The notes under the pieces were generated by a model. The model searched no databases and had not been told where the DNA came from. It saw nothing but the letters and a program-made list of their open reading frames with translations. Positions 17,193 to 62,530 of a stretch of DNA of 64,000 nucleotides are shown here, piece after piece. The position numbers and the translations under genes were made by a program. This DNA is from a virus. Numbering within the stretch: the stretch's first letter is position 1; each line of letters starts with the position of its first letter. The stretch lies in the UHGV virus genome UHGV-0367612; one strand, written 5' to 3'.

Positions 17193-19655
17193 TTAAATCG
17201 GATTTGTTACTAAGTTTTTCTTACCTTTTCTGATATAGTTAGTTATGGCTTCAGCCATTATGCAGTCATCTGTGTATACTGCATCATCATCGTAGATGTT
17301 ATCATCGTTTGCCTTATCTTTACCCATTGCCACTGGCCTATTTCTGGAATCGAATATGAATGTATATGACTCATCCACAAAGAATTTGTTACATATATTC
17401 ACTTGGTCAAAACGGATATCTTCTTCTAACTCATCTATAATAATTGGTCTAGTGGATGTGGTTGTATACCAACCTGGGATATCTTCTACCTCAGGCTTAC
17501 TTTTACCTTTCTTTTTCAAGAGTTTTTTGGCGTAATACAAGTTAGGATAACCGTGATCCTGAATCTTAGAAGTTACTGCCAACCCAATATCATTTGATTC
17601 TGGTGCTATCAAAGCATTGTTGAAACGTTTACCGGTATGCATGAGGAGGTTTGCATACTTAGAGGGATTTATCTTTCCCCTAAAATAAGCTAACTCCTCC
17701 CCATACCGGTTCATAACAGAAAATGCAGAATAGTCGTTTGCTCTACCAATAGCAACGTCTGCTCCGATAAAGCATCTCTCACCAGGTTTAGCGAAACGTC
17801 GTATGAAAAGTTTCCCATTCTGTTCAATGGAAATATAATCATCTGGATAAGGTAAGCATTCCTCTATTGCTCTGATACAATTCAAATCGAATACCGTATT
17901 ACCTGAAGAAAGGAAGTCACCATCAATCTCCTGTGCTGTTCTCCTTGGACCCAGTGACTTAGCCATCGAGTTATACCACTCCTCGTTTCTTTCAGGGTGC
18001 ATTTGCCAATACAACCGAATAGGATTGAAATAACTATCTCCATTTTTGGCATCAACCCATTGTTTGTGAAAGAAGTTCCCAATACCCATTGGCGTGTTAT
18101 GGTTGATATACAGCGAGTTACATATATAAGATTGATCCTCTTCTACTGAAATATCATATATGTTCTCATAGGTGACGTTCACTAATTTTAACTTAGAAAT
18201 ATTCACCTTTGTAACCCTCTTGTTGTTTATAACTCTACTGATATATGAAGCATTTACTCTTAACCCTAATTCATCTTCAATCTCTCTCATAATAATCTTA
18301 GATGAACCATAGGAGTTACCATACTTTTGATACTTCTCTTTTATCTTACCTATCAATAAGATATCTGGAAATTTATCACCCACACTTGGAGCAACTTTAA
18401 ATGTGGGGGAAAGGTTTACTGCTCTCTTAGTATTTTCTGATTGAGATAGTATTTGTAAGTTTGTTACATAATTATGAGAATGGTCACAATCTATATGGTC
18501 TACTACATAACCTTCTGGAATATCACCTATAAATAATTTAGCTACTAATCTTGATACTGAAAAGTTCTTACTCTCCCCATTTGCCCAAAGCTTAAACCTA
18601 TAATACCCAGAATTACCTAGTATGGGTTCTTTCTCTATCAGAGAATCACCATCCTTTATATATAACTTACCCCAGTTAGATAACATATATTTTGGATAAC
18701 CAGGTATATTCTTGAATATCTCAATACTTGGTTTCTCGGTTTTTTTTGTTTCTAACTTCTTAAACCCTGTATCAAAGGTTATTATATTTAAACCTTCTCT
18801 AACAATTCTACCTACTGACCTCCAACCCTCTGTAGTATATAATTTATGAGCTGGAGTACATCTCAAAGTATTTCCTTGTTCATCTTCTACTTCCCAGGTT
18901 TTCAATATACCTTTGTTCACAGAGTGTGTTACTTTTCTCCACTTACCAGTATGTGATAATACTTCTATCCCTAAATGAGATATATCTTTTATCCCCATTT
19001 CTTTTGGGCATACAGTATCAATTCTCAATGGTCCTTCTTTTGTAACTATTTCAGTATCACCTGTAACGCAAGAGTTTAGGATAGCACTACCTCCAGTTGA
19101 TAGAGTGGGGAATGCTGCTGCCCAGATCCTATCAGCCCATCTTACAATTGCCGCCTCGTCTATCACAAGAAGAGAAACTGCCTCTGAACGACCGGCTTCT
19201 TCTGTTGTGGGGACTGATGTTATTGATGACCCATTCACAAACTCAAGTACTGTGGCAGTACCAAATGAGTCTCCACGTATTTGAGTTACAGGAGTTTGTA
19301 ACCATTCTGGCAGGTTTTTGTACATGTACTTAATCCTTTTCAAAACTCTCTTTGCAACCATATCCTTGATCGAGATAATCTGGATATTCTTGTTGTCATT
19401 AAACATGGCTAACCATAAGCAAAAGAAAGCGATAAGCTCTGTTAAACCTGCCTGACGAAACTTAAGTATGATGTTGAAACGGTTGTTCAGAAAATTCCAG
19501 AGAACTGCTCTCTGGTATTCGTAGAGTTTGAATTGTACTTTACCCTTAACAGGATGAATGATATACACAAAGTTTGCAAGGTAGAATGGATTTACCTTGC
19601 ATGTCCTGTATATTTCAAATTGTTCCTTCGTAAGAGTTACTATCTTTTTCTCCAT
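17193..19655 (-). CDS. terL: terminase large subunit interrupted by an intein
   Basis: Walker A-like 'KFRQAGLTE' and Walker B 'LLVIDEAA' at the N-terminus. The C-terminal nuclease/extein part resumes after 'HN|T'. A 325-aa insertion begins 'CVTGDTEI' and ends '...SLYINHN'. An 820-aa TerL is plausible only once the intein is accounted for. Confidence 0.8.
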   Translation of the reverse strand: MEKKIVTLTKEQFEIYRTCKVNPFYLANFVYIIHPVKGKVQFKLYEYQRAVLWNFLNNRFNIILKFRQAGLTELIAFFCLWLAMFNDNKNIQIISIKDMVAKRVLKRIKYMYKNLPEWLQTPVTQIRGDSFGTATVLEFVNGSSITSVPTTEEAGRSEAVSLLVIDEAAIVRWADRIWAAAFPTLSTGGSAILNSCVTGDTEIVTKEGPLRIDTVCPKEMGIKDISHLGIEVLSHTGKWRKVTHSVNKGILKTWEVEDEQGNTLRCTPAHKLYTTEGWRSVGRIVREGLNIITFDTGFKKLETKKTEKPSIEIFKNIPGYPKYMLSNWGKLYIKDGDSLIEKEPILGNSGYYRFKLWANGESKNFSVSRLVAKLFIGDIPEGYVVDHIDCDHSHNYVTNLQILSQSENTKRAVNLSPTFKVAPSVGDKFPDILLIGKIKEKYQKYGNSYGSSKIIMREIEDELGLRVNASYISRVINNKRVTKVNISKLKLVNVTYENIYDISVEEDQSYICNSLYINHNTPMGIGNFFHKQWVDAKNGDSYFNPIRLYWQMHPERNEEWYNSMAKSLGPRRTAQEIDGDFLSSGNTVFDLNCIRAIEECLPYPDDYISIEQNGKLFIRRFAKPGERCFIGADVAIGRANDYSAFSVMNRYGEELAYFRGKINPSKYANLLMHTGKRFNNALIAPESNDIGLAVTSKIQDHGYPNLYYAKKLLKKKGKSKPEVEDIPGWYTTTSTRPIIIDELEEDIRFDQVNICNKFFVDESYTFIFDSRNRPVAMGKDKANDDNIYDDDAVYTDDCIMAEAITNYIRKGKKNLVTNPI
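18096..19070 (-). mobile_element. intein with HNH homing-endonuclease domain inside terL
   Basis: Splicing block A 'C-VTGDTEIV', C-terminal block 'IYDISVEE...LYINHN' followed by the +1 Thr. The internal HNH motif is 'VVDHIDCDHSHNYVTNLQILSQSENTKRAV'. Confidence 0.75.
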
Positions 19656-20326: not shown

Positions 20327-20480
20327 CCATGTTTCCTGTTTGGTTTCAGTGTATTAGAACCTCGAAAGTAAAATTTTATCAGTTCTAGAAATCAGGGAAA
20401 GGATATCGCGTGTATGCGTATAGACTAGGCTTAGGATTAAGCTTAAAGATAGAGTTAGAGAAAGAGTAAGGTAATAATTT

Positions 20481-20571
20481 TTAGGCTTTAGCCTAAAAAT
20501 ACTTAGGATACGTAGTATCCTAAGTTTATACTCTTTTCTCTTTCTAAAAAGGATATTACGTAGTAATATCC
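20481..20571. promoter_or_regulatory. cluster of three perfect palindromes (operator/terminator candidates)
   Basis: Three palindromes: ttaggctttagcctaa (20481-20496), cttaggatacgtagtatcctaag (20502-20524) and ggatattacgtagtaatatcc (20551-20571). The last two share a TACGTAGTA core. Confidence 0.5.
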
Positions 20572-20592
20572 CAAAAAGGTTTTCTCTTCTCT

Positions 20593-21603
20593 CTAAATAA
20601 ACTTTTTGTGTCTGAAAATCCATTCCAATGATTGTTTTATCCATGTCCCTACTTCATAAGGGGGGCACTTAGCTACTGTAGTACGGCCTTTGTTTATCCA
20701 ATAGTTGATGTTCTCCCTCTCTGCATGGATTATGAATTCATCAGGTATTCCCTGTATCCTAGCTAATTCTCTAGGACTCATCTGATAACCATCGGGATTG
20801 AATTGTCTGTTTGATTTCCTAGCTACTTGAGGATATGAATGCTTCAGGTTTCTGTAAACACCCGGTGCAGAAGAGTATTTACGTTTACTAGCTATGAATC
20901 TCTTTTCATTCGGATGATCTATCCAATACCTTCTTACTTCAGATAATGTCATCTTAAATCCGGCATACATAGTTACTTCAGAATTTATCAACTCAGTGAT
21001 ATGTCCCCAAGGTATAGAATGGTTGTTGGATTTTAATCCTTTTAACAAAATTCCAGTAGTTTTAGGCTTATGTTCTTTAAATTTCGTGATGTGTTTCCAT
21101 ATCAGTTTATGATTAACTGGGAAATCTTTCCTTATACCCATCACTATAAGCCTTATTCTCCCAACTTGAGAATTCCCAAACTTTAACACTGAGCCAGTTA
21201 AGTAATGTAAGTGGTATTCTTCACTAAGCCATTTTATCTCCTTAACAGAATATTTGGCTTTCGGTAAATTCTCCATGAAAAATATACTCGGTTTATAGGT
21301 TTTTATCTGGTCAAAGAACATGGCAAATGAATCATTATCAAGAGGATTAGAGAATTCTTTTGCCCTTGTTAAAGCCATCATTGATGATGATCCACAATCT
21401 GGTGCTCCCACTATCACATCTGGGAAATCAAATACTTCTTCAGGTTTTTTGTAGAATGGTATACCTTCAAAATTCCTATTCCACTGGATATTGTTTTGAG
21501 TATGGAATAAACTCCTACTCTCAATATTTCCAGTAAGGTTGTCTTTCATTGGGTATAACCAAGAACCATTACCCCCACATACTGCTAAAATTTTGTGTTT
21601 CAT
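20593..21603 (-). CDS. DNA (cytosine-5)-methyltransferase family protein
   Basis: Motif I 'LAVCGGNGS', ENV-like 'FFMENLP', motif VIII-like 'SQVGRIRLIVMG', motif IX/X 'SPRELARIQGIPDEF'. The catalytic PC motif is atypical ('GAPDCGSSS'). Confidence 0.6.
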   Translation of the reverse strand: MKHKILAVCGGNGSWLYPMKDNLTGNIESRSLFHTQNNIQWNRNFEGIPFYKKPEEVFDFPDVIVGAPDCGSSSMMALTRAKEFSNPLDNDSFAMFFDQIKTYKPSIFFMENLPKAKYSVKEIKWLSEEYHLHYLTGSVLKFGNSQVGRIRLIVMGIRKDFPVNHKLIWKHITKFKEHKPKTTGILLKGLKSNNHSIPWGHITELINSEVTMYAGFKMTLSEVRRYWIDHPNEKRFIASKRKYSSAPGVYRNLKHSYPQVARKSNRQFNPDGYQMSPRELARIQGIPDEFIIHAERENINYWINKGRTTVAKCPPYEVGTWIKQSLEWIFRHKKFI

Positions 21604-23242: not shown

Positions 23243-23441
23243 AACCTGTGGTAAACTGTTAGTAGAGGTAGAAGCTGATTGGTACCAGTTTAATTGGTAT
23301 TACGCTCCGTTAGAGATAAGACCACCATTAAGAGAACTGTTTCCTGGAATTACTCATGAACAGTTCTTGGGTTTGAAATACAGGAAATGTGAGCAATGCA
23401 GGAAACAAAAGAAACAAAAGAAACAAAGGATTTGCATTTAG
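23190..23441 (+). CDS. hypothetical zinc-ribbon protein
   Basis: 83 aa with CxxC...CxxC ('CKTCGK' ... 'CEQCRK'). The start may be internal because it overlaps the upstream ORF by 53 nt. Confidence 0.25.
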   Translation: MKKEKKNTREHPLQVYCKTCGKLLVEVEADWYQFNWYYAPLEIRPPLRELFPGITHEQFLGLKYRKCEQCRKQKKQKKQRICI

Positions 23442-29067: not shown

Positions 29068-29086
29068 AAAGTGGTGGAAATTTTTT

Positions 29087-29117
29087 GGAGGATATGGATA
29101 ACGTATCCTCTTTTTTG
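29087..29117 (+). terminator. Rho-independent terminator of plus-strand block
   Basis: Hairpin gaggata-N9-tatcctc followed by TTTTTTG. Confidence 0.6.
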
Positions 29118-29277
29118 TATGTATAGGGTGATGGGGTGGCTTTGAATCCTTGTCCTTGATCCTTGTTTGTGGGGCTTGGGAAAGTCGTAGCTGTAGGGGG
29201 GCCGGTCGGTAGGATATAATTAAAAAATAAGTGTTAATTTTTTAGGGGACAAATTAACACTTATCTAATTTAAAAAT

Positions 29278-29388
29278 TTAACGTTTTTCTTTCTTGAAAC
29301 ACACGTACAAAATGCAAACAATAACTAAAATAATAATCTGCATAATGAAAGAAAGTATTTCAATTAATGCGTTTAAAATAGCGTCCAT
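29278..29388 (-). CDS. 36-aa hydrophobic peptide with charged C-terminus (type I toxin-like)
   Basis: Not in the ORF track (below 60 aa). Minus-strand translation is MDAILNALIEILSFIMQIIILVIVCILYVCFKKEKR*. The stop is followed by an 11-bp perfect inverted repeat hairpin (29229-29262) and a T-run. Confidence 0.35.
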   Translation of the reverse strand: MDAILNALIEILSFIMQIIILVIVCILYVCFKKEKR

Positions 29389-29558
29389 ATCTAAAAACAA
29401 TTATAGATAAATATATCATATTTCTTTTTGAAAATTTTTTCATAGAAATATTTTTTTAGTTTTAAAATCTTTTTCTCCATTCTAAAATAATTGAATACAC
29501 GAAACAAATAAAAATGAGTAGTACAAATGTACTACTCACTAATGTAAAAATATTCATT

Positions 29559-29939
29559 TTATTTTGCGGTCTGTTTGAAATTCTTTGATTTTGCAGTCTG
29601 CAAACGTGCAAACAATTTTTTCATTGCGTCCTCTTTTTCGAGTGTCGAAGTATTATATAGCTCTTTTGCGCTATTATACTCTCCTTGCACTTCTACAATC
29701 GTGTCGTGTAGTTCTTTCAACTCGACTAACGTTTTTTTGTCAACGTTAAATGCAAAATCAAGAATGAATTTTTGATACAATTTGCGTACACTCTTTTTTT
29801 CGTGCGTTTTTGAATCCATTTTCGCTAAATTATTAGGAATCTCTAGTCCTAATAATTTATACAACTTTTCGTAGTTAATTTTACCTTTGTTGTTACTACG
29901 ATTTACAACGCTTTTAGAAAATTCTTGAAATAAACTCAT
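29559..29939 (-). CDS. hypothetical protein with non-phage codon usage
   Basis: The likely start is MSLFQEFSKS... because the annotated upstream extension overlaps a hairpin (ggtgaac...gtcacc). Coiled-coil, Lys-rich protein. Frequent ACG/GCG/TCG/CGC codons are absent from the rest of the window. A terminator hairpin agtagtaca-aa-tgtactact (29517-29536) with a T-run follows on the minus strand. Confidence 0.4.
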   Translation of the reverse strand: MSLFQEFSKSVVNRSNNKGKINYEKLYKLLGLEIPNNLAKMDSKTHEKKSVRKLYQKFILDFAFNVDKKTLVELKELHDTIVEVQGEYNSAKELYNTSTLEKEDAMKKLFARLQTAKSKNFKQTAK

Positions 29940-30232
29940 AATATAAATTATTAAAAATAAAAGGTGAACTTTTAAATTTGGTGTCACCTCATAGCCAAAT
30001 TATATTTTTACATTTTTTCAACATTTCAAAGAACTTGTTTTTTTATCGTTTTTCGATATACGAATGTACAATTAATTTTTGAACTACAAAAATATTTGCA
30101 AGAAAAAATCAAATTATTTTCATGAAAAAATTAATTTTATTTTCATTCTAAATTAAATAAAAATCGAAAAATTTTTGATTAAAAATTTGTTTTTGTCAAA
30201 AAAATTTCGTAGATTCAATATATAAAATATCC

Positions 30233-30400
30233 ACCTGCCCGCCTGCCCACCCTATTCCTAATTCCAATCTAGCTCTGGCTTCCGCTCCTAGTCCTGGTAT
30301 CTTCTGAGCCCGCCTACCTTCTTAGCCTTAAATTAAACCCGCCTTCCTATTCCTAACCTATTAACATTAACCCAATAGCTCTCACCTTTCAGTTCTCCGG
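30233..30400. repeat. polypyrimidine (plus-strand) tract with iteron-like direct repeats
   Basis: About 170 nt of almost exclusively C/T on the plus strand. CCCGCCT occurs three times (30238, 30309, 30338). CCTATTCCTAA occurs twice (30252, 30347). Confidence 0.5.
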
Positions 30401-30661
30401 TTAACTGATAAGAAGGCTTTAAGATAACTAGGATATAAGGCCTTATGACCACTAATTATGATATCTAGTTGATCAACTCTTATCAAACATGTAAATATTC
30501 TCATAGAATAACTACTTTTCTTCTAGAAATTCATTCTGGCTGTCCTAAAATGACAGAAAAGCGAGCTTTCATTCAGTCAAACTTTCTCACACAATCAATC
30601 ACAAAAATAGAGTGGCTGTATGGGTCACTCTATCATTACATCTAATACAGCTCTTACAGCC

Positions 30662-31177
30662 TCAGTTCTTTTTCTCAAGCATTTTCACTACCTGATATCC
30701 GACCTTTGCCTGGATAACATCCATCCGGTAATCCTGGAATTTACTGTAGTGGGTGTACTCTTCCAGTTCCCTTGTCTTGATAACCTTCTCAATCCTGTTG
30801 ATGAAATCCTGAACATCAACCTCATATTGTGCCTGATGTAGTACCTGATAGTACTGGGATATCAGATCCGGAATATAGTCGCAGAGCTCATCATCCTCTG
30901 TAACCTCCATAGCCCTCTCATAAACTAAGAGTCCCAACATATTCAGATAAGCTGTTAACCTTGTTTCCGGTACGTTGACTTCCCATATATTATCCGGTAA
31001 ACATCCAAATACATCCATTATGGGTTCCATCTCTTCCCAATCCTGAGGGTCGTAAATCTTGATAGCCTTGAGCCCTGTGATCTTCTCTGCCCAAGCTAAC
31101 AACTCATATTCTCCGGTTGAACCTACAGTTAATAACTTAATTTCCTTGATTCCCTGATTTGCTTGTTCGTTCTCCAT
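30662..31177 (-). CDS. hypothetical acidic protein
   Basis: 171-aa ORF, preceded by a conserved early promoter copy at 31205-31242. Confidence 0.4.
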   Translation of the reverse strand: MENEQANQGIKEIKLLTVGSTGEYELLAWAEKITGLKAIKIYDPQDWEEMEPIMDVFGCLPDNIWEVNVPETRLTAYLNMLGLLVYERAMEVTEDDELCDYIPDLISQYYQVLHQAQYEVDVQDFINRIEKVIKTRELEEYTHYSKFQDYRMDVIQAKVGYQVVKMLEKKN

Positions 31178-31204
31178 AATTTTATTTATTTTAAAAATTA
31201 ATAT

Positions 31205-31242
31205 ATTGCAAATATAATAAACCCTGATTGCTGATGCAAATC
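31205..31242 (-). promoter_or_regulatory. conserved early promoter copy (Bacteroidetes sigma-A type)
   Basis: Plus-strand ttgcaaatataataaaccctgattgctgatgcaaatcc. On the gene strand this reads GGATTTGCA-N-TATATTTGCAA. Confidence 0.55.
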
Positions 31243-31494
31243 CTTTTTAACCCTAATAGGGATCTGAAACCCGCCCACTTATCTTAGAGGCCTTAACATC
31301 ACCAAGCCGAGATTTAGGATAGGGCTGAAGGACCTATCCTCCATGGCTATGGTTCTCTATCCTAATTCTAATCCTTAGCCTGATATCCATAGCCTGACAA
31401 AGCCAAACACTAAAAGTTCTCCCAGTACATTATATAAGTACAAAGGAGAACTGATCAGGCTTGGGTTGTTGGCCTTGATTTGGGGATATGGCTC

Positions 31495-32988
31495 CTATTC
31501 TCTGTTAGGTAGTGAATCGTCCTCTATAACATCAACCTGTCTTCTGGCTAAGGATTTGAGATGTCTTTGGGCCTTTTTGTCCTTAGCCTTTAGAGGCTGT
31601 ATGGTATCACCATATTGGTATTTCCTTTTCTTCTTTGGTGATAAGGATATAGGGCCCTTATTCCCTGATACTGGATTAGGATTTAAGGCTGTTTGAGGCT
31701 TAGGATCAAGGTCCTTGAGGCCATCATGGCTATCCTGGCCTTTACTGTCATTGGGCCTCAGTGATCCCTTTCCCATCCCCAAAAATTGAGGCCCGGACTC
31801 CATCCTTGATCCTTGATTTGTGGCTAATAAATCCTCTACAGATCCCTGAATGTCTGATACAGCCTCAGTATAATCATTATCGGATACTGGAACACCATCC
31901 AAATAAGGAATCCCATTACCTAAACCCAAATCCATACCTATACTATTACTCTCTTTAGAATTACTCTTAGATAATGTACTTGTAGATTGATGAATTTCTT
32001 TGTTTTTTGTGGGTTTTTCTTTTTGTAGGCTATCAGGGATAAGGTCTTCATCCGTATCCTGGTCTATATCTTCCTCTTCCCAGTCCTCTACCTGATCCTT
32101 TATCCCTTTAGATTTTCTCTCTTCTGCTTTTTGTAATGTCAGGATTTTATCCTGGATCCTTTGTCTTAGGGTTTTGTCTTCTGTTTCTTGTAGTTGTTTT
32201 TGTAATTCTGGGATTGTGTCCTCTATCCAGTCAACGTCTTCGATTTGTTGCATTCTTTTCTCTGATCTGGCTTTGGATACAGAGTTGTCGATGTGATCAT
32301 ATTTATGTAGTATATCTAGGGAGATATGTTCTTTCTCTTCTAATAGTTTGAGCTGAGGTTGGTCTAGGATTTTAGCCTGTTTTATGTTATCTGTTTGTAT
32401 TTCTTTCGGTTGGGATGTTTGAACTATTTTGTAGGCTTCCTCTACAGTCAAGGATTGGGATTGGTTATTTTGAGTGAGGTTGTTGTTGATGTTGATGGTA
32501 GATCCTGAAGCATAGAAGGTCCTGAATATCTCTGCTACTTGTTTATTAGATTGTAGTAGAGTGGATAGGGTTCTGGATATCTCTCCTGATATGAAGGGTG
32601 CGTATTTATCTCCTTGTGATTTTAGTAGGATTTCTAGTTGATGTTGGATTGTACCTCTATCCTGAATAGCCCAAAGTGTGGACATGTTGGCTAAGGCTGC
32701 AGCAGTATCCTGTAACCTTTGAGGGTCTTTGAAGGCCTCTAATGTATGAGAGGTTCCGAGCATACATGATTGTATTGTTTCTACTTTGGTATTTAAAAGA
32801 TGGGCCAGTTGAGGGATGGATAGTGTCCTATCATTTAGCCTGAATCCTGACATTGTGTAGATATTGACAATGTGGGAAATCAGTTTCTCTTTCCTGGTTT
32901 TTCTTAACTTTTTGCTCTTTGCTTTATTCATTTGCTGAGCTAGGATTGTAACCCCAGTAGGTCTGGGCATTCTTTCAATTTGTGTCAT
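31495..32988 (-). CDS. hypothetical protein, basic N-terminal domain and long acidic Gln/Glu-rich C-terminus
   Basis: 497 aa. Basic N-terminus 'KAKSKKLRKTRKEKL'. The central and C-terminal parts are low-complexity, acidic and Q-rich, with a Gly/Asp/Ser-rich tail. Confidence 0.4.
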   Translation of the reverse strand: MTQIERMPRPTGVTILAQQMNKAKSKKLRKTRKEKLISHIVNIYTMSGFRLNDRTLSIPQLAHLLNTKVETIQSCMLGTSHTLEAFKDPQRLQDTAAALANMSTLWAIQDRGTIQHQLEILLKSQGDKYAPFISGEISRTLSTLLQSNKQVAEIFRTFYASGSTININNNLTQNNQSQSLTVEEAYKIVQTSQPKEIQTDNIKQAKILDQPQLKLLEEKEHISLDILHKYDHIDNSVSKARSEKRMQQIEDVDWIEDTIPELQKQLQETEDKTLRQRIQDKILTLQKAEERKSKGIKDQVEDWEEEDIDQDTDEDLIPDSLQKEKPTKNKEIHQSTSTLSKSNSKESNSIGMDLGLGNGIPYLDGVPVSDNDYTEAVSDIQGSVEDLLATNQGSRMESGPQFLGMGKGSLRPNDSKGQDSHDGLKDLDPKPQTALNPNPVSGNKGPISLSPKKKRKYQYGDTIQPLKAKDKKAQRHLKSLARRQVDVIEDDSLPNRE

Positions 32989-34992: not shown

Positions 34993-35030
34993 ATGCAAAT
35001 ATATAAAACCTGTTTTACTTTTGCAAATCC
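34993..35030 (-). promoter_or_regulatory. conserved early promoter copy
   Basis: Plus-strand atgcaaatatataaaacctgttttacttttgcaaatcc. Identical 39-mer to the copy at 39.5 kb. Confidence 0.6.
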
Positions 35031-61500: not shown

Positions 61501-61767
61501 ACCTATATATTTTAATACCCTTTTCCACTTATTCCCTTTTCTCAATGGAGAATCTTTATGAGCTAAAGGTATTACATAAGCATACCCAGGTTGGAATGCT
61601 ATAGATATACAAGTAGGATATCCTCTATGATCAGAACTATGATGACCGGATGTCTCATAGTCATGGGCACAATATCCGGTCATCTTGCAGTACTTAACAA
61701 CTTTCTTTACATCGGCCATGGTTTTGGCCCAACTAAAGTGATAGTTATCTAGTACGTCCTTGTTCAT
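58558..61767 (-). CDS. family A DNA polymerase with 3'-5' exonuclease, interrupted by an intein
   Basis: Exo I 'AHDYETSG'. Pol motif A 'LDYSQAELRV'. Motif B is split: 'RRKQAK' [310-aa insert 'CYSGDTEIL ... IVLSGN'] 'TIGFGVLYQQG'. The C-terminal part carries the motif C region. Confidence 0.85.
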   Translation of the reverse strand: MNKDVLDNYHFSWAKTMADVKKVVKYCKMTGYCAHDYETSGHHSSDHRGYPTCISIAFQPGYAYVIPLAHKDSPLRKGNKWKRVLKYIGRELIQNDRIVKVAHNFKFEHGWWLKYGIRPRGVILDTMLMKYLLNEKRPHDLKSLAYSFFPQYANYSIKGEDTERTPEEVVQFWSNVPLETLAPYNALDSDLCLRLSIYLEQRIRECGFYQLYRNLLEMASYNLAEVESRGYLVDRPYLDGLCESYKIKIEEAEAKMYAVPSLVKYNKKRVKAAKKALLDGLLEQIEIKTNELDNTTDKKKLGSLQRSITNLQKKYDNYSAGVGLTKKDKESLQPLNLKSVKQLIDFLYYNKYGLRLPIIKYTEDKKTKKPTKNPATSEDVLLELKDKDETGFIETLLKYREITKLYSTYIVGIRDILNPDNTLHGSFLIHGTVTGRLSSRNPNLQNMPRDTTAKDIKYMFVCPKGKVMMQLDYSQAELRVVAGWSQDKQMLEWFRVGHDIHLATACKKYKISYEDAYKIYSNEDDPNYKTWKVRRKQAKCYSGDTEILTPTGWQRLDSYDGKSLVAQYNFDTEEISWVKPSAYGKVISKNNYTYKSRTVSLDVTSTHKTLFVTRHQKKIRTDFKNLVNKSGYMPVAGKVNFEFEDENLTRFLAMFTADGNIKNQWEKIRFGFSKEHKANRCRELLALCNIDYTEAIRNGKHYFCIIKKTNQPLYQWLSNWVSMGKELSWECLSHISGKIYLEEAQYWDSNISNKTGYVSFSTVVKQTAQVMQAMGHMNGIMVSFSETKVGDRTRYHLGYNLRRDTHLTRVDLNNSILTKTEGGRDMWGVTVDDHNLLVRKDNKIVLSGNTIGFGVLYQQGPNHLKESLSTPDHKATKEEAIEFLDEWFDTFPRIRKFVKKQQKFAEEHGYVVSPFGRKRRLPEARNKREQGKYAKALRDAVNAPIQGTASDFALFSSILIREQIMQGKLPASIEQIGTIHDSIMFYLDPKDMNDEVVDHLFNICKDPDTQKYFGFKLKGITMAVDFELGLRWSKLKGYKRGTDYAEVYKDCYIDHWWENKEIVALQEAS
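59221..60150 (-). mobile_element. intein with LAGLIDADG-type homing endonuclease in DNA polymerase motif B
   Basis: Starts at Cys after 'RRKQAK' and ends 'VLSGN' before Thr. The internal 'LTRFLAMFTADGNIK' is LAGLIDADG-like. Coordinates are approximate (plus or minus 3 nt). Confidence 0.7.
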
Positions 61768-62530
61768 CTTCTATACAATTTTTAAGTATATCCCAATCTT
61801 TCCTGTAAGAGTGGAGTGATGCAATATTATGGTACAGGTATCCAGGTTTTAAATCCTTCATACCCTTTGATCTCAATACCTGGGTAATGTATTCTTTCAA
61901 CTGCCAAGCCAGGAATACATCATTACCAAAGTGAGTTACTACATCCGCTGAACGTTGGTTGTAAATAATATGCAACCTGTTTTCTCGGATAATTAGTTGG
62001 TAATACATTGAGCATGGTACCCTTCTCTTTCCTCCAATATATGCTCCATCATTTTCCAAATCCCAGATAGGTAAAATACCTTGACGAGTATCTGGGTTAC
62101 GGAATAATTCATCTACCACTCTCTCAAGATTACCTACTTCATCTTCCTCTTCTCCACCTGGGCAGAAGTTCATCCTCTCTCCATAGGCATAATCGAATTT
62201 CCCATTTACCAAGAACTCTTCCCAAATCTCTTTTCTGATTTTCCAAGCTTCACCTGGGTTTAATCTTGCAGGATTTACTCTCTCATTAAACTCTGCAATA
62301 GCCCACTTCTTGGTGGTTTCAATATCTGTTTGGGTTCCATTGAAAAGGTACTCTTCTCTGTTCAATGTCAATAAACAGTAAGAGTAATTCAGAATTTCCC
62401 GGGTCTCAAAGTTAATGTCACCTTCAATATTTTTATTCTGCATTGACTTTGGCCTAACTATAGATGACATCTCCCACACCTCACGTCTTATTTCAGACAT
62501 TAACTGATAGCAATCATCGTATATCCTCAT
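61745..62530 (-). CDS. deoxynucleotide hydroxymethylase (T4 gp42 / dCMP hydroxymethylase family)
   Basis: 'RRVPCSMYYQLIIRENRLHIIYNQRSADVVTHFGNDVFLAWQ' aligns with T4 gp42 'FMC(148)TNTVQYLIRDKKINAVVNMRSNDVVFGFRND(179)YAWQ', as recalled from memory. The catalytic Cys and the Asn-Asp pair are both present. Confidence 0.7.
   Translation of the reverse strand: MRIYDDCYQLMSEIRREVWEMSSIVRPKSMQNKNIEGDINFETREILNYSYCLLTLNREEYLFNGTQTDIETTKKWAIAEFNERVNPARLNPGEAWKIRKEIWEEFLVNGKFDYAYGERMNFCPGGEEEDEVGNLERVVDELFRNPDTRQGILPIWDLENDGAYIGGKRRVPCSMYYQLIIRENRLHIIYNQRSADVVTHFGNDVFLAWQLKEYITQVLRSKGMKDLKPGYLYHNIASLHSYRKDWDILKNCIEDEQGRTR

Follow-up and report, generated by a model that had tools for sequence, protein, structure and literature searches.

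In phage lambda, transcriptional activation helps the origin of replication to open or to be primed, a step to which the mechanism proposed below may be likened, and the lactococcal phages c2 and sk1 reportedly carry non-coding origin regions at the boundary between early and late genes. In T4-type phages, repeated regulatory cassettes of the PeSL type mediate gene shuffling. Here we describe a G-rich, purine-skewed non-coding tract at positions 30233-30400 of a stretch of 64,000 nucleotides (nt) from UHGV virus genome UHGV-0367612 (hereafter the window), together with the intergenic region that holds it. An earlier inspection of the letters alone (the sequence-only reading) had proposed this tract as a candidate replication origin or triplex-forming element. 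The tract is a cis-acting DNA element, neither a gene nor a structured RNA, and we give a probability of roughly one in three to the reading that it forms the protein-recognition arm of an origin or control region.

The T4 origins oriF (uvsY) and oriG (gene 34) combine a middle-mode promoter with a downstream DNA unwinding element and are primed by R-loops (PMC4412123). At the sequence level the same order is found here for a predicted promoter at 30081-30104: this conserved promoter-like element, which is not of the host-early type, points into very AT-rich DNA (a 5′ untranslated region of ~140 nt, ~80% AT, reaching to the ATG at 29939) and serves a small gene. As in T4, a UvsX/gp32/gp46-47-type gene set is present and no initiator can be recognised. 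T4 origins, however, can do without a repeat module upstream, whereas this locus has G-rich repeats upstream of its promoter, and the host is a member of the Bacteroidota with other promoter rules; any RNA-DNA hybrid at the locus is hypothetical. With origins made of iterons and AT-rich DNA (lambda ori, P1 oriR, theta plasmids) the locus shares direct repeats beside the most meltable DNA, a nearby and highly conserved gene without an assigned role, and single-copy status in the genome. By composition it also has the AT-rich unwinding element of such origins. Classical iterons are at least three near-identical, helically phased direct repeats of ~17-22 base pairs (bp), whereas here we found two to three modules of 45-55 nt that are only about 60-70% alike, irregularly spaced and variable in the copy number of their sub-motifs; the word CCCGCCT, previously regarded as iteron-like, occurs one to three times per relative, and its spacings are 29 and 71 nt. 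Also unlike iteron origins, the locus has no identified initiator, DnaA boxes or skew switch. In its working the locus would come closest to these two kinds of origin, T4 and iteron-based, but as the repeats depart from iterons in number, length, identity and phasing, and as the T4 model is silent on upstream repeats, we place the locus in neither family. It shares with the c2 and sk1 origins a long, AT-rich stretch of non-coding DNA that has direct repeats, inverted repeats and a promoter and is situated between gene modules, but has no sequence similarity to them. The gain and loss of a promoter-gene-terminator cassette between short repeats, together with many near-identical early promoters, recalls PeSL elements, although the flanking repeats here are G-rich modules rather than promoter-stem-loop units, and the proximal module is selected independently of the cassette.

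The gene content and the Bacteroidota-type promoters of this phage fit the proposed ‘Flandersviridae’ of Benler et al. (PMC8008677). Such phages are among the most prevalent Bacteroides phages of the human gut, and the literature examined gives no origin, regulatory map or culture system for them (PMC8008677). The locus is their single large conserved non-coding region, which makes it the obvious first target in a search for the start of replication or the switch from early to later expression, and it is also a fixed landmark beside a hot-spot for accessory-gene cassettes. If it were an origin, it would offer a cis-element from which replicons, or Per-type interference tools directed at these phages, could be built; control of a promoter alone would make it nothing unusual. 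As to type, the locus is an unremarkable intergenic control or origin region of a phage; its sequence is new and restricted to this phage group.

The phage genome to which the window belongs is encoded nearly wholly on the minus strand. Using an identical scaffold in ENA, 98.6% of the circular genome (84,863 bp) could be rebuilt. The ends of that scaffold overlap by 16 nt within the AT-rich block, as expected of a circular assembly, and the break inside the block is therefore an assembly artefact and not a terminus. Contig ends in general were considered as genome termini and rejected, their positions being scattered among the assembled contigs. About 30 related loci were fetched, all from human-gut metagenomes, and these fall into three clades (A, B and a divergent C that includes L025). 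INPHARED gave no nucleotide match to the region in near or distant mode, and the capsid protein has only about 47% identity to gut phage records without annotation.

A conserved, internally duplicated non-coding module

The plus strand of the tract had been described as almost purely C/T. It is 69% pyrimidine (A33 C64 G19 T52), with a longest unbroken pyrimidine run of 7 nt; this content stands at about the 98th percentile of 168-nt windows and is exceeded by several coding stretches (up to 81.5%). The real peculiarity of the tract is its G/C skew, not pyrimidine purity. At 49% G+C the skew is -0.54 on the plus strand, within the top 0.4% of the genome, and every window found with a stronger skew is coding sequence. 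In composition (C 38%, G 11%) the plus strand of the tract would suit a rut site of a Rho-dependent terminator, and its RNA lacks structure. However, there is no conserved promoter on that strand to feed the tract, and the entire plus strand has more C than G.

The repeats reported earlier fared better. CCCGCCT lies at 30238, 30309 and 30338 on the plus strand, exactly as claimed, and the extended direct repeat said to occur twice some 95 bp apart is CCTATTCCTAA, at 30251 and 30346 (95 nt apart); a further CCCGCCC was also present, at 31270 rather than at 31269. Read on the minus strand, AGGCGGG occurs four times in the window where 1.27 copies are expected, and three of the four are in the tract. 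Among dinucleotide shuffles of the tract, 8% contained some 7-mer at least three times and 1.5% an exact repeat of at least 11 nt.

These words belong to a longer unit than had been described. The tract consists of an internally duplicated module of ~45-55 nt (AGAGCTA..TTGG / TTAGGAATAGG / AGGCGGG), its halves aligning as AGAGCTA(GA)TTGG..TTAGGAATAGG..AGGCGGG, and each module runs from GAGCYN hexamers through GATTGGRATTAGGRATAGG to AGGYGGG. The duplication score was reached by 10 of 500 shuffles for the window, by 1 of 300 for L002 and by none of 300 for either L003 or L014. The copies lie ~95-106 bp apart, roughly 9-10 helical turns. A third, diverged copy probably exists upstream of the tract, at 31330-31400; its alignment score with copy 2 was matched by 12 of 300 shuffles in the window, 11 of 300 in both L014 and L024, and 2 of 300 in L029, and an earlier, broader comparison of the tract with the region at the 3′ end of the upstream gene for a protein of 497 amino acids (aa) was not significant.

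Conservation is concentrated in the promoter-proximal copy (copy 2). Its core, CCAGAGCTARATKGG, occurs in every relative whose fetched DNA reaches the site, including L007, which lacks the neighbouring cassette gene, and L025, of the most divergent clade, keeps it in weaker form. Compared between clades A and B, copy 2 has an identity of 0.76-0.81, as against 0.66-0.70 for the whole tract and 0.43-0.53 for the four-fold sites of flanking genes, the non-coding values being somewhat inflated by the optimisation of their alignments. Selection therefore acts on copy 2, which is more alike than the four-fold sites, and it evolves more slowly than its own flanks. The distal copy 1 is less conserved (0.61-0.63 between clades A and B) and absent from L007. 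The most conserved element of the entire intergenic region is the promoter-like element, at 0.8-0.93 identity across the three clades. Purine bias and G>C skew are kept even where the sequence has diverged (~68% and ~+0.5 in clades A and B, 61% and +0.29 in clade C, L025), and all relatives retain 5-11 GGG runs per tract. Individual CCCGCCT copies, the conservation of which had been suggested as a check, are not kept, with one to three per genome. The middle AGGCGGG, for example, is lost in clade B and has become AGGTGGG in L024, and GAGCCA varies in copy number, with one extra in L017.

Genome-wide, the motifs of the locus are nearly confined to it: AGGCGGG (3 of 4 copies), TTAGGAATAGG, AGAGCTA..TTGG, TTTTTYGAY (3 of 4 copies) and the single conserved promoter. 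A search of IMG/VR for the core or the promoter elsewhere returned the same four contigs and one chance AT-rich match. The single GTDB match, to the tract's 20-nt core, was rejected as chance; it is an MPELDWDYGYP-coding part of a CorA-like gene in a metagenome-assembled genome of the Veillonellaceae (L032 3611-3630, CAWDTA010000005.1), with no similarity beyond the core.

Coding and RNA functions were also assessed. A recoded or hidden gene was rejected, since all three stop types occur in all frames and the tract of a relative (L046) has a 1-nt indel, and so was a micro-open reading frame, the ATG of which is found in most relatives but not in L002 or the window, and the length of which is not conserved. 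The region contains no tRNA or tmRNA; Rfam gave no match at the gathering score and only chance-level matches at E up to 10; and the folding energy is no better than that of shuffles (z +0.14 on the minus strand, -0.65 on the plus strand). A weak RNAalifold consensus (-28.7 kcal/mol over 394 columns) leaves the tract itself unpaired and has almost no covariation. The alternative that the tract is a 5′ leader or non-coding RNA for the genes of the AT-rich island is not supported: the promoter is downstream of the tract, a terminator is just upstream of it, an Rfam match and excess folding energy are lacking, and covariation is almost absent.

Anatomy of the intergenic region

The gap at 29940-30661 (722 nt) is the longest real intergenic region of the window, and the gene calls for the fetched rest of the genome contain none larger. 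Along the minus strand, the 497-aa gene is followed by a terminator hairpin (~31412-31455), a purine-rich stretch with the probable third module, an early promoter and a 171-aa gene; then come a terminator, ~200 nt of conserved non-coding blocks, the tract, the AT-rich block, a 126-aa gene and a bidirectional terminator at 29513-29540 (Table 1).

Table 1. Position and strand of the elements of the locus.
Feature	Position	Strand	Remarks
G-rich, purine-skewed non-coding tract	30233-30400	-	69% purine on this strand, G64/C19
Module copy 2, promoter-proximal: GGAGCGGAAGCCAGAGCTAGATTGGAATTAGGAATAGGGTGGGCAGGCGGG	30238-30288	-	includes hexamer-phased GAGCYN repeats
Middle AGGCGGG copy between both modules	30309-30315	-	from word count
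Module copy 1, distal: GTGAGAGCTATTGGGTTAATGTTAATAGGTTAGGAATAGGAAGGCGGG	30338-30385	-	from internal duplication test
Probable third, diverged module-like copy (..CAGGCTAAGGATTAGAATTAGGATAG..)	31330-31400	-	just past the 497-aa gene terminator
Intrinsic terminator hairpin (ATAGAGTG..CACTCTAT + T-run)	30602-30633	-	closes the cassette gene, 5′ of the conserved non-coding region
AT-rich block (83% AT)	29990-30232	-	TTTTTYGAY repeats and 20-nt inverted repeat
Promoter-like element TTCTTGCAAATATTTTTGTAGTTC	30081-30104	-	unique, conserved; Bacteroidota -7 box TATTTTTG at 30094-30087
Monocistronic 126-aa gene	29559-29939	-	open reading frame; predicted helical protein, no assigned role
171-aa variable cassette gene	30662-31177	-	own early promoter 31209-31240; sits between module copies
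497-aa gene, immediately upstream	31495-32988	-	N-terminal ~290 aa nearly invariant across clades

That very AT-rich DNA adjoins the tract, as had been pointed out, is correct. No other 200 nt in the window or the reconstructed genome are as AT-rich as 29997-30196 (84.5% AT), which is also jointly the least stable stretch, with 30030-30229 tying for the lowest nearest-neighbour stability in the window. The TTTTTYGAY copies of the block are at 30203 and 30171 on the minus strand and at 30049 on the plus strand (the 84.9 kb hold four, and L002 has up to six), and the arms of its inverted repeat are 30165-30184 and 30190-30209. On the other side of the 126-aa gene, a second long, non-coding and very AT-rich stretch (29068-29558; 82% AT at 29316-29515) is conserved in relatives, so that this gene lies between the two genome segments that are richest in AT.

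The promoter-like element is present once in the genome, has no canonical -33 box and differs from 11 near-identical early promoters with the pattern TTTGCA-N16-TATATTTG. Those on the minus strand are at 31240, 35027, 35922, 39534, 41256, 41757, 44080, 45486, 47681 and 58576, thus spanning 31.2 to 58.6 kb, and one is on the plus strand at 23431. As these promoters mark the early region, the locus lies at its downstream end. The family (GGATTTGCA-N16-TATATTTGCAT) is of Bacteroidota type, is found 25-35 nt 5′ of start codons and has no member in the structural gene block; a sigma-70 promoter scan is uninformative for such a host. Two of its members, at 35027 and 39534, share 32 identical nt, through which genes could be shuffled.

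The terminator between the cassette gene and the tract was read from the sequence and is absent from the list of a consensus scanner. Relatives keep it with stem changes that compensate one another, and its loop is inverted, being reverse-complemented (ACCCATACAGC vs GCTGTATGGGT) on a preserved stem among the window, L014, L017, L024, L027 and L029. Three GCTGTA repeats lie 5′ of this hairpin.

Origin, promoter control and other readings

Conserved repeats beside AT-rich DNA, in the largest intergenic region and at the boundary of the early region, are compatible with an origin or control region. We infer protein binding, DNA melting and a replication role in the following form. A phage DNA-binding protein would bind the module copies, above all the promoter-proximal one, and this binding would determine where the adjoining AT-rich block melts; opening or priming may then be helped by transcription that starts at the conserved promoter and runs into the AT-rich DNA, after which T4-like recombination-dependent replication would take over. 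The phage encodes PolA, an ATP-dependent ligase, SbcC/SbcD, a RecA/UvsX-like protein, a gp32-like protein, a FEN-type exonuclease and DnaB, and searches of Pfam, PHROG and PDB identified no recognisable initiator gene, a combination that fits a T4-style origin strategy. The 497-aa protein encoded next to the tract is, speculatively, a candidate for its binder.

Several findings weigh against this reading. A switch in GC skew, which had been suggested as a check, was not observed at the locus: cumulative skew over the 84.9-kb circle falls monotonically, with reversals only over plus-strand genes. The A/T skew of four-fold sites differs between early and late genes, and plus-strand genes, read on the strand that encodes them, behave in the manner of late genes, which indicates that the asymmetry follows transcription and gene class and not the direction of replication. 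For a phage whose gene set is T4-like and suited to recombination-dependent replication, the lack of a switch neither refutes an origin nor supports one. Neither an initiator protein nor a DnaA box was identified, the latter being absent from the intergenic region even with up to 1 mismatch. The repeats, being few, dissimilar and irregularly spaced, are not classical iterons, and single AGGCGGG copies are lost or mutated within clades, through C/T changes to AGGTGGG and, in L027, through a 9-nt deletion that removes the proximal copy. Finally, with the conserved promoter downstream of the tract and a terminator directly upstream of it, an R-loop of the T4 type arising from that promoter would exclude the tract.

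All of the evidence is equally compatible with a purely transcriptional control region, and such a role is almost as likely as an origin. The modules would then be far-upstream operator or activator sites which, with TTTTTYGAY, time the unique promoter and the 126-aa gene (a middle/late switch) and have no part in replication. The promoter itself is the site of strongest conservation in the region, and it probably needs a factor, as it lacks the -33 box that the 11 early promoters possess. Additionally, the 126-aa gene forms a unit by itself, monocistronic and with an insulating terminator on each side, and the spacing of the modules would suit DNA looping. However, the modules are centred ~165 and 270 bp 5′ of the -7 box, which is far for ordinary bacterial activators, no sigma-54-type promoter was evident on reading the sequence by eye, the AT-rich repeats between modules and promoter make better operator candidates, and the conserved strand composition is left unexplained. 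It is rather doubtful that the tract has no sequence-specific function and is a spacer or recombination scar at a site of cassette insertion and deletion, with a purine bias that mirrors that of the sense strand. The variable cassette does sit exactly between module copies, L007 resembles a deletion between GATAG.GGATT words, the entire minus strand is purine- and G-rich and individual motif copies are mutable. Against this stand the much slower evolution of the proximal copy relative to four-fold sites and its own flanks, the persistence of the core in cassette-free L007 and, more weakly, in L025, and a G/C skew surpassed only within coding sequence.

Readings that involve RNA, packaging or unusual DNA structure have less in their favour. 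A read-through G-rich transcript might form an R-loop on the C-rich template into the AT block and prime DNA synthesis, as in ColE1 or the mitochondrial conserved sequence block (CSB), or the tract might belong to a 3′ untranslated region or small RNA. G-rich transcripts are a known determinant of R-loops (PMC4412123), and the strong G>C skew with GGG runs in all relatives, a FEN/RNase-H-like 5′-3′ exonuclease gene in the phage and a strong early promoter ~600-1000 nt upstream are all in keeping with this idea. We nevertheless consider it unlikely, because in every relative an intrinsic terminator stands directly 5′ of the tract (at a distance of only ~20 nt in L007), a search for a promoter between the two gave none, and the Rfam, folding and consensus-structure results above speak against a functional RNA. 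Less likely still is a pac-type packaging site to which the adjacent 497-aa protein would bind as a small terminase. Residues 17-81 of this protein weakly match the PHROG family ‘terminase small subunit’ (E = 0.0087). In SPP1 and P1, pac sites consist of repeats beside bent AT-rich DNA next to the terS gene, and the layout of the locus can be seen as similar by analogy. However, none of 41 remote homologues of the 497-aa protein, found in a scan of 1.8 billion proteins, matches any PHROG at 1e-3, and the protein itself has no Pfam or PDB support. Its gene is 12 kb from that of the large terminase (TerL), the start of which is overlapped by a 228-aa open reading frame with its own hairpin-rich intergenic region upstream. 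Contig breaks are scattered rather than placed at the tract, the scaffold ending in the AT block being explained by its circular assembly and 16-nt overlap. Non-B DNA, as an intramolecular triplex (H-DNA) or a minus-strand G-quadruplex, is the least probable reading of all and has very little chance of being right. Of these two, the triplex-forming element put forward earlier is already largely refuted: H-DNA calls for an uninterrupted homopurine-homopyrimidine mirror repeat of at least ~15 bp, and it is excluded by the absence of any pure C/T run longer than 7 nt from a tract that is 31% purine on the plus strand. For the quadruplex there is a G4Hunter score of 1.44 at 30231-30255 (about fifth in the window) and a canonical GGGATTAGGGATAGGGTGGG motif in L002; on the other side, even allowing loops of up to 12 nt brings out no G-quadruplex motif in the window, such a motif is present in just 5 of 11 relatives, and the G-runs are deleted in L027. 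We rejected the quadruplex as a conserved feature, as fewer than half of the relatives carry the motif.

A bolder version of the origin reading, which strikes us as improbable, is that the origin of ‘Flandersviridae’-like phages consists of a G-skewed module and an AT block without a classical initiator, opened by read-through RNA or by a new protein family (the N-terminal domain of the 497-aa protein), with repeats that double as a substrate for cassette swapping.

Cassette slot and neighbouring genes

The 171-aa gene occupies a hypervariable slot. It is replaced by other genes in L003, L024, L025 and L017 and is absent in L007, and the slot corresponds to 30662-31240 in the window, 6775-7776 in L002, 6852-7427 in L003, 6664-7761 in L005, 5700-6855 in L017, 2230-2787 in L024 and 2431-2781 in L025. 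None of its cassette proteins has a Pfam match, and the partial contigs L004, L006 and L013 break beside it. In L007 only a terminator remains between the 497-aa gene and the tract, followed within ~20 nt by a G-rich tract of ~110 nt and then by the AT block. Precisely where the tract has its left edge, the identity between L007 and L005 rises abruptly from ~91% to 98.5%, and the junction falls in GATAG.GGATT words that are present both after the first terminator and inside the tract. The module copies therefore also act as short homologies for the gain and loss of promoter-gene-terminator cassettes.

The proteins on either side of the slot and the intergenic region obtained no annotation from Pfam, PHROG or PDB, not even by way of the 41 remote homologues. 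The 126-aa protein has 148 homologues, all within this phage group, and its model (pLDDT 69.6) gave no fold match. An identical public record of the 497-aa protein is labelled ‘Ackermannviridae sp.’, and no usable structural model of it was obtained (pLDDT 40). In its C-terminal ~200 residues the sequence is variable and of low complexity. The family of its N-terminal domain comprises 377 representatives at 50% clustering, mostly of 250-300 aa and with an invariant N-terminal R..R..G pattern, and no library searched holds an annotation for it.

Elsewhere in the genome, the large terminase gene (17193-19655, minus strand) is split by an intein with an HNH_3 homing-endonuclease domain (hits to Terminase_6N, Intein_splicing, HNH_3 and NUMOD4). 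The intergenic stretch 5′ of the 228-aa open reading frame and TerL (20327-20592, minus strand) contains three successive palindromic hairpins, two of which have GGATA(T)TACTACGTA..TATCC in common; these could be a pac site or a terminator cluster. A thymidylate-synthase-like enzyme, a DNA methyltransferase-like protein and a Cpn10/GroES-like co-chaperonin are encoded at 61745-62530 (minus strand), at 20593-21603 (minus strand) and at 10830-11186 of L054, and the first of these, which is divergent, is possibly a base-modifying hydroxymethylase.

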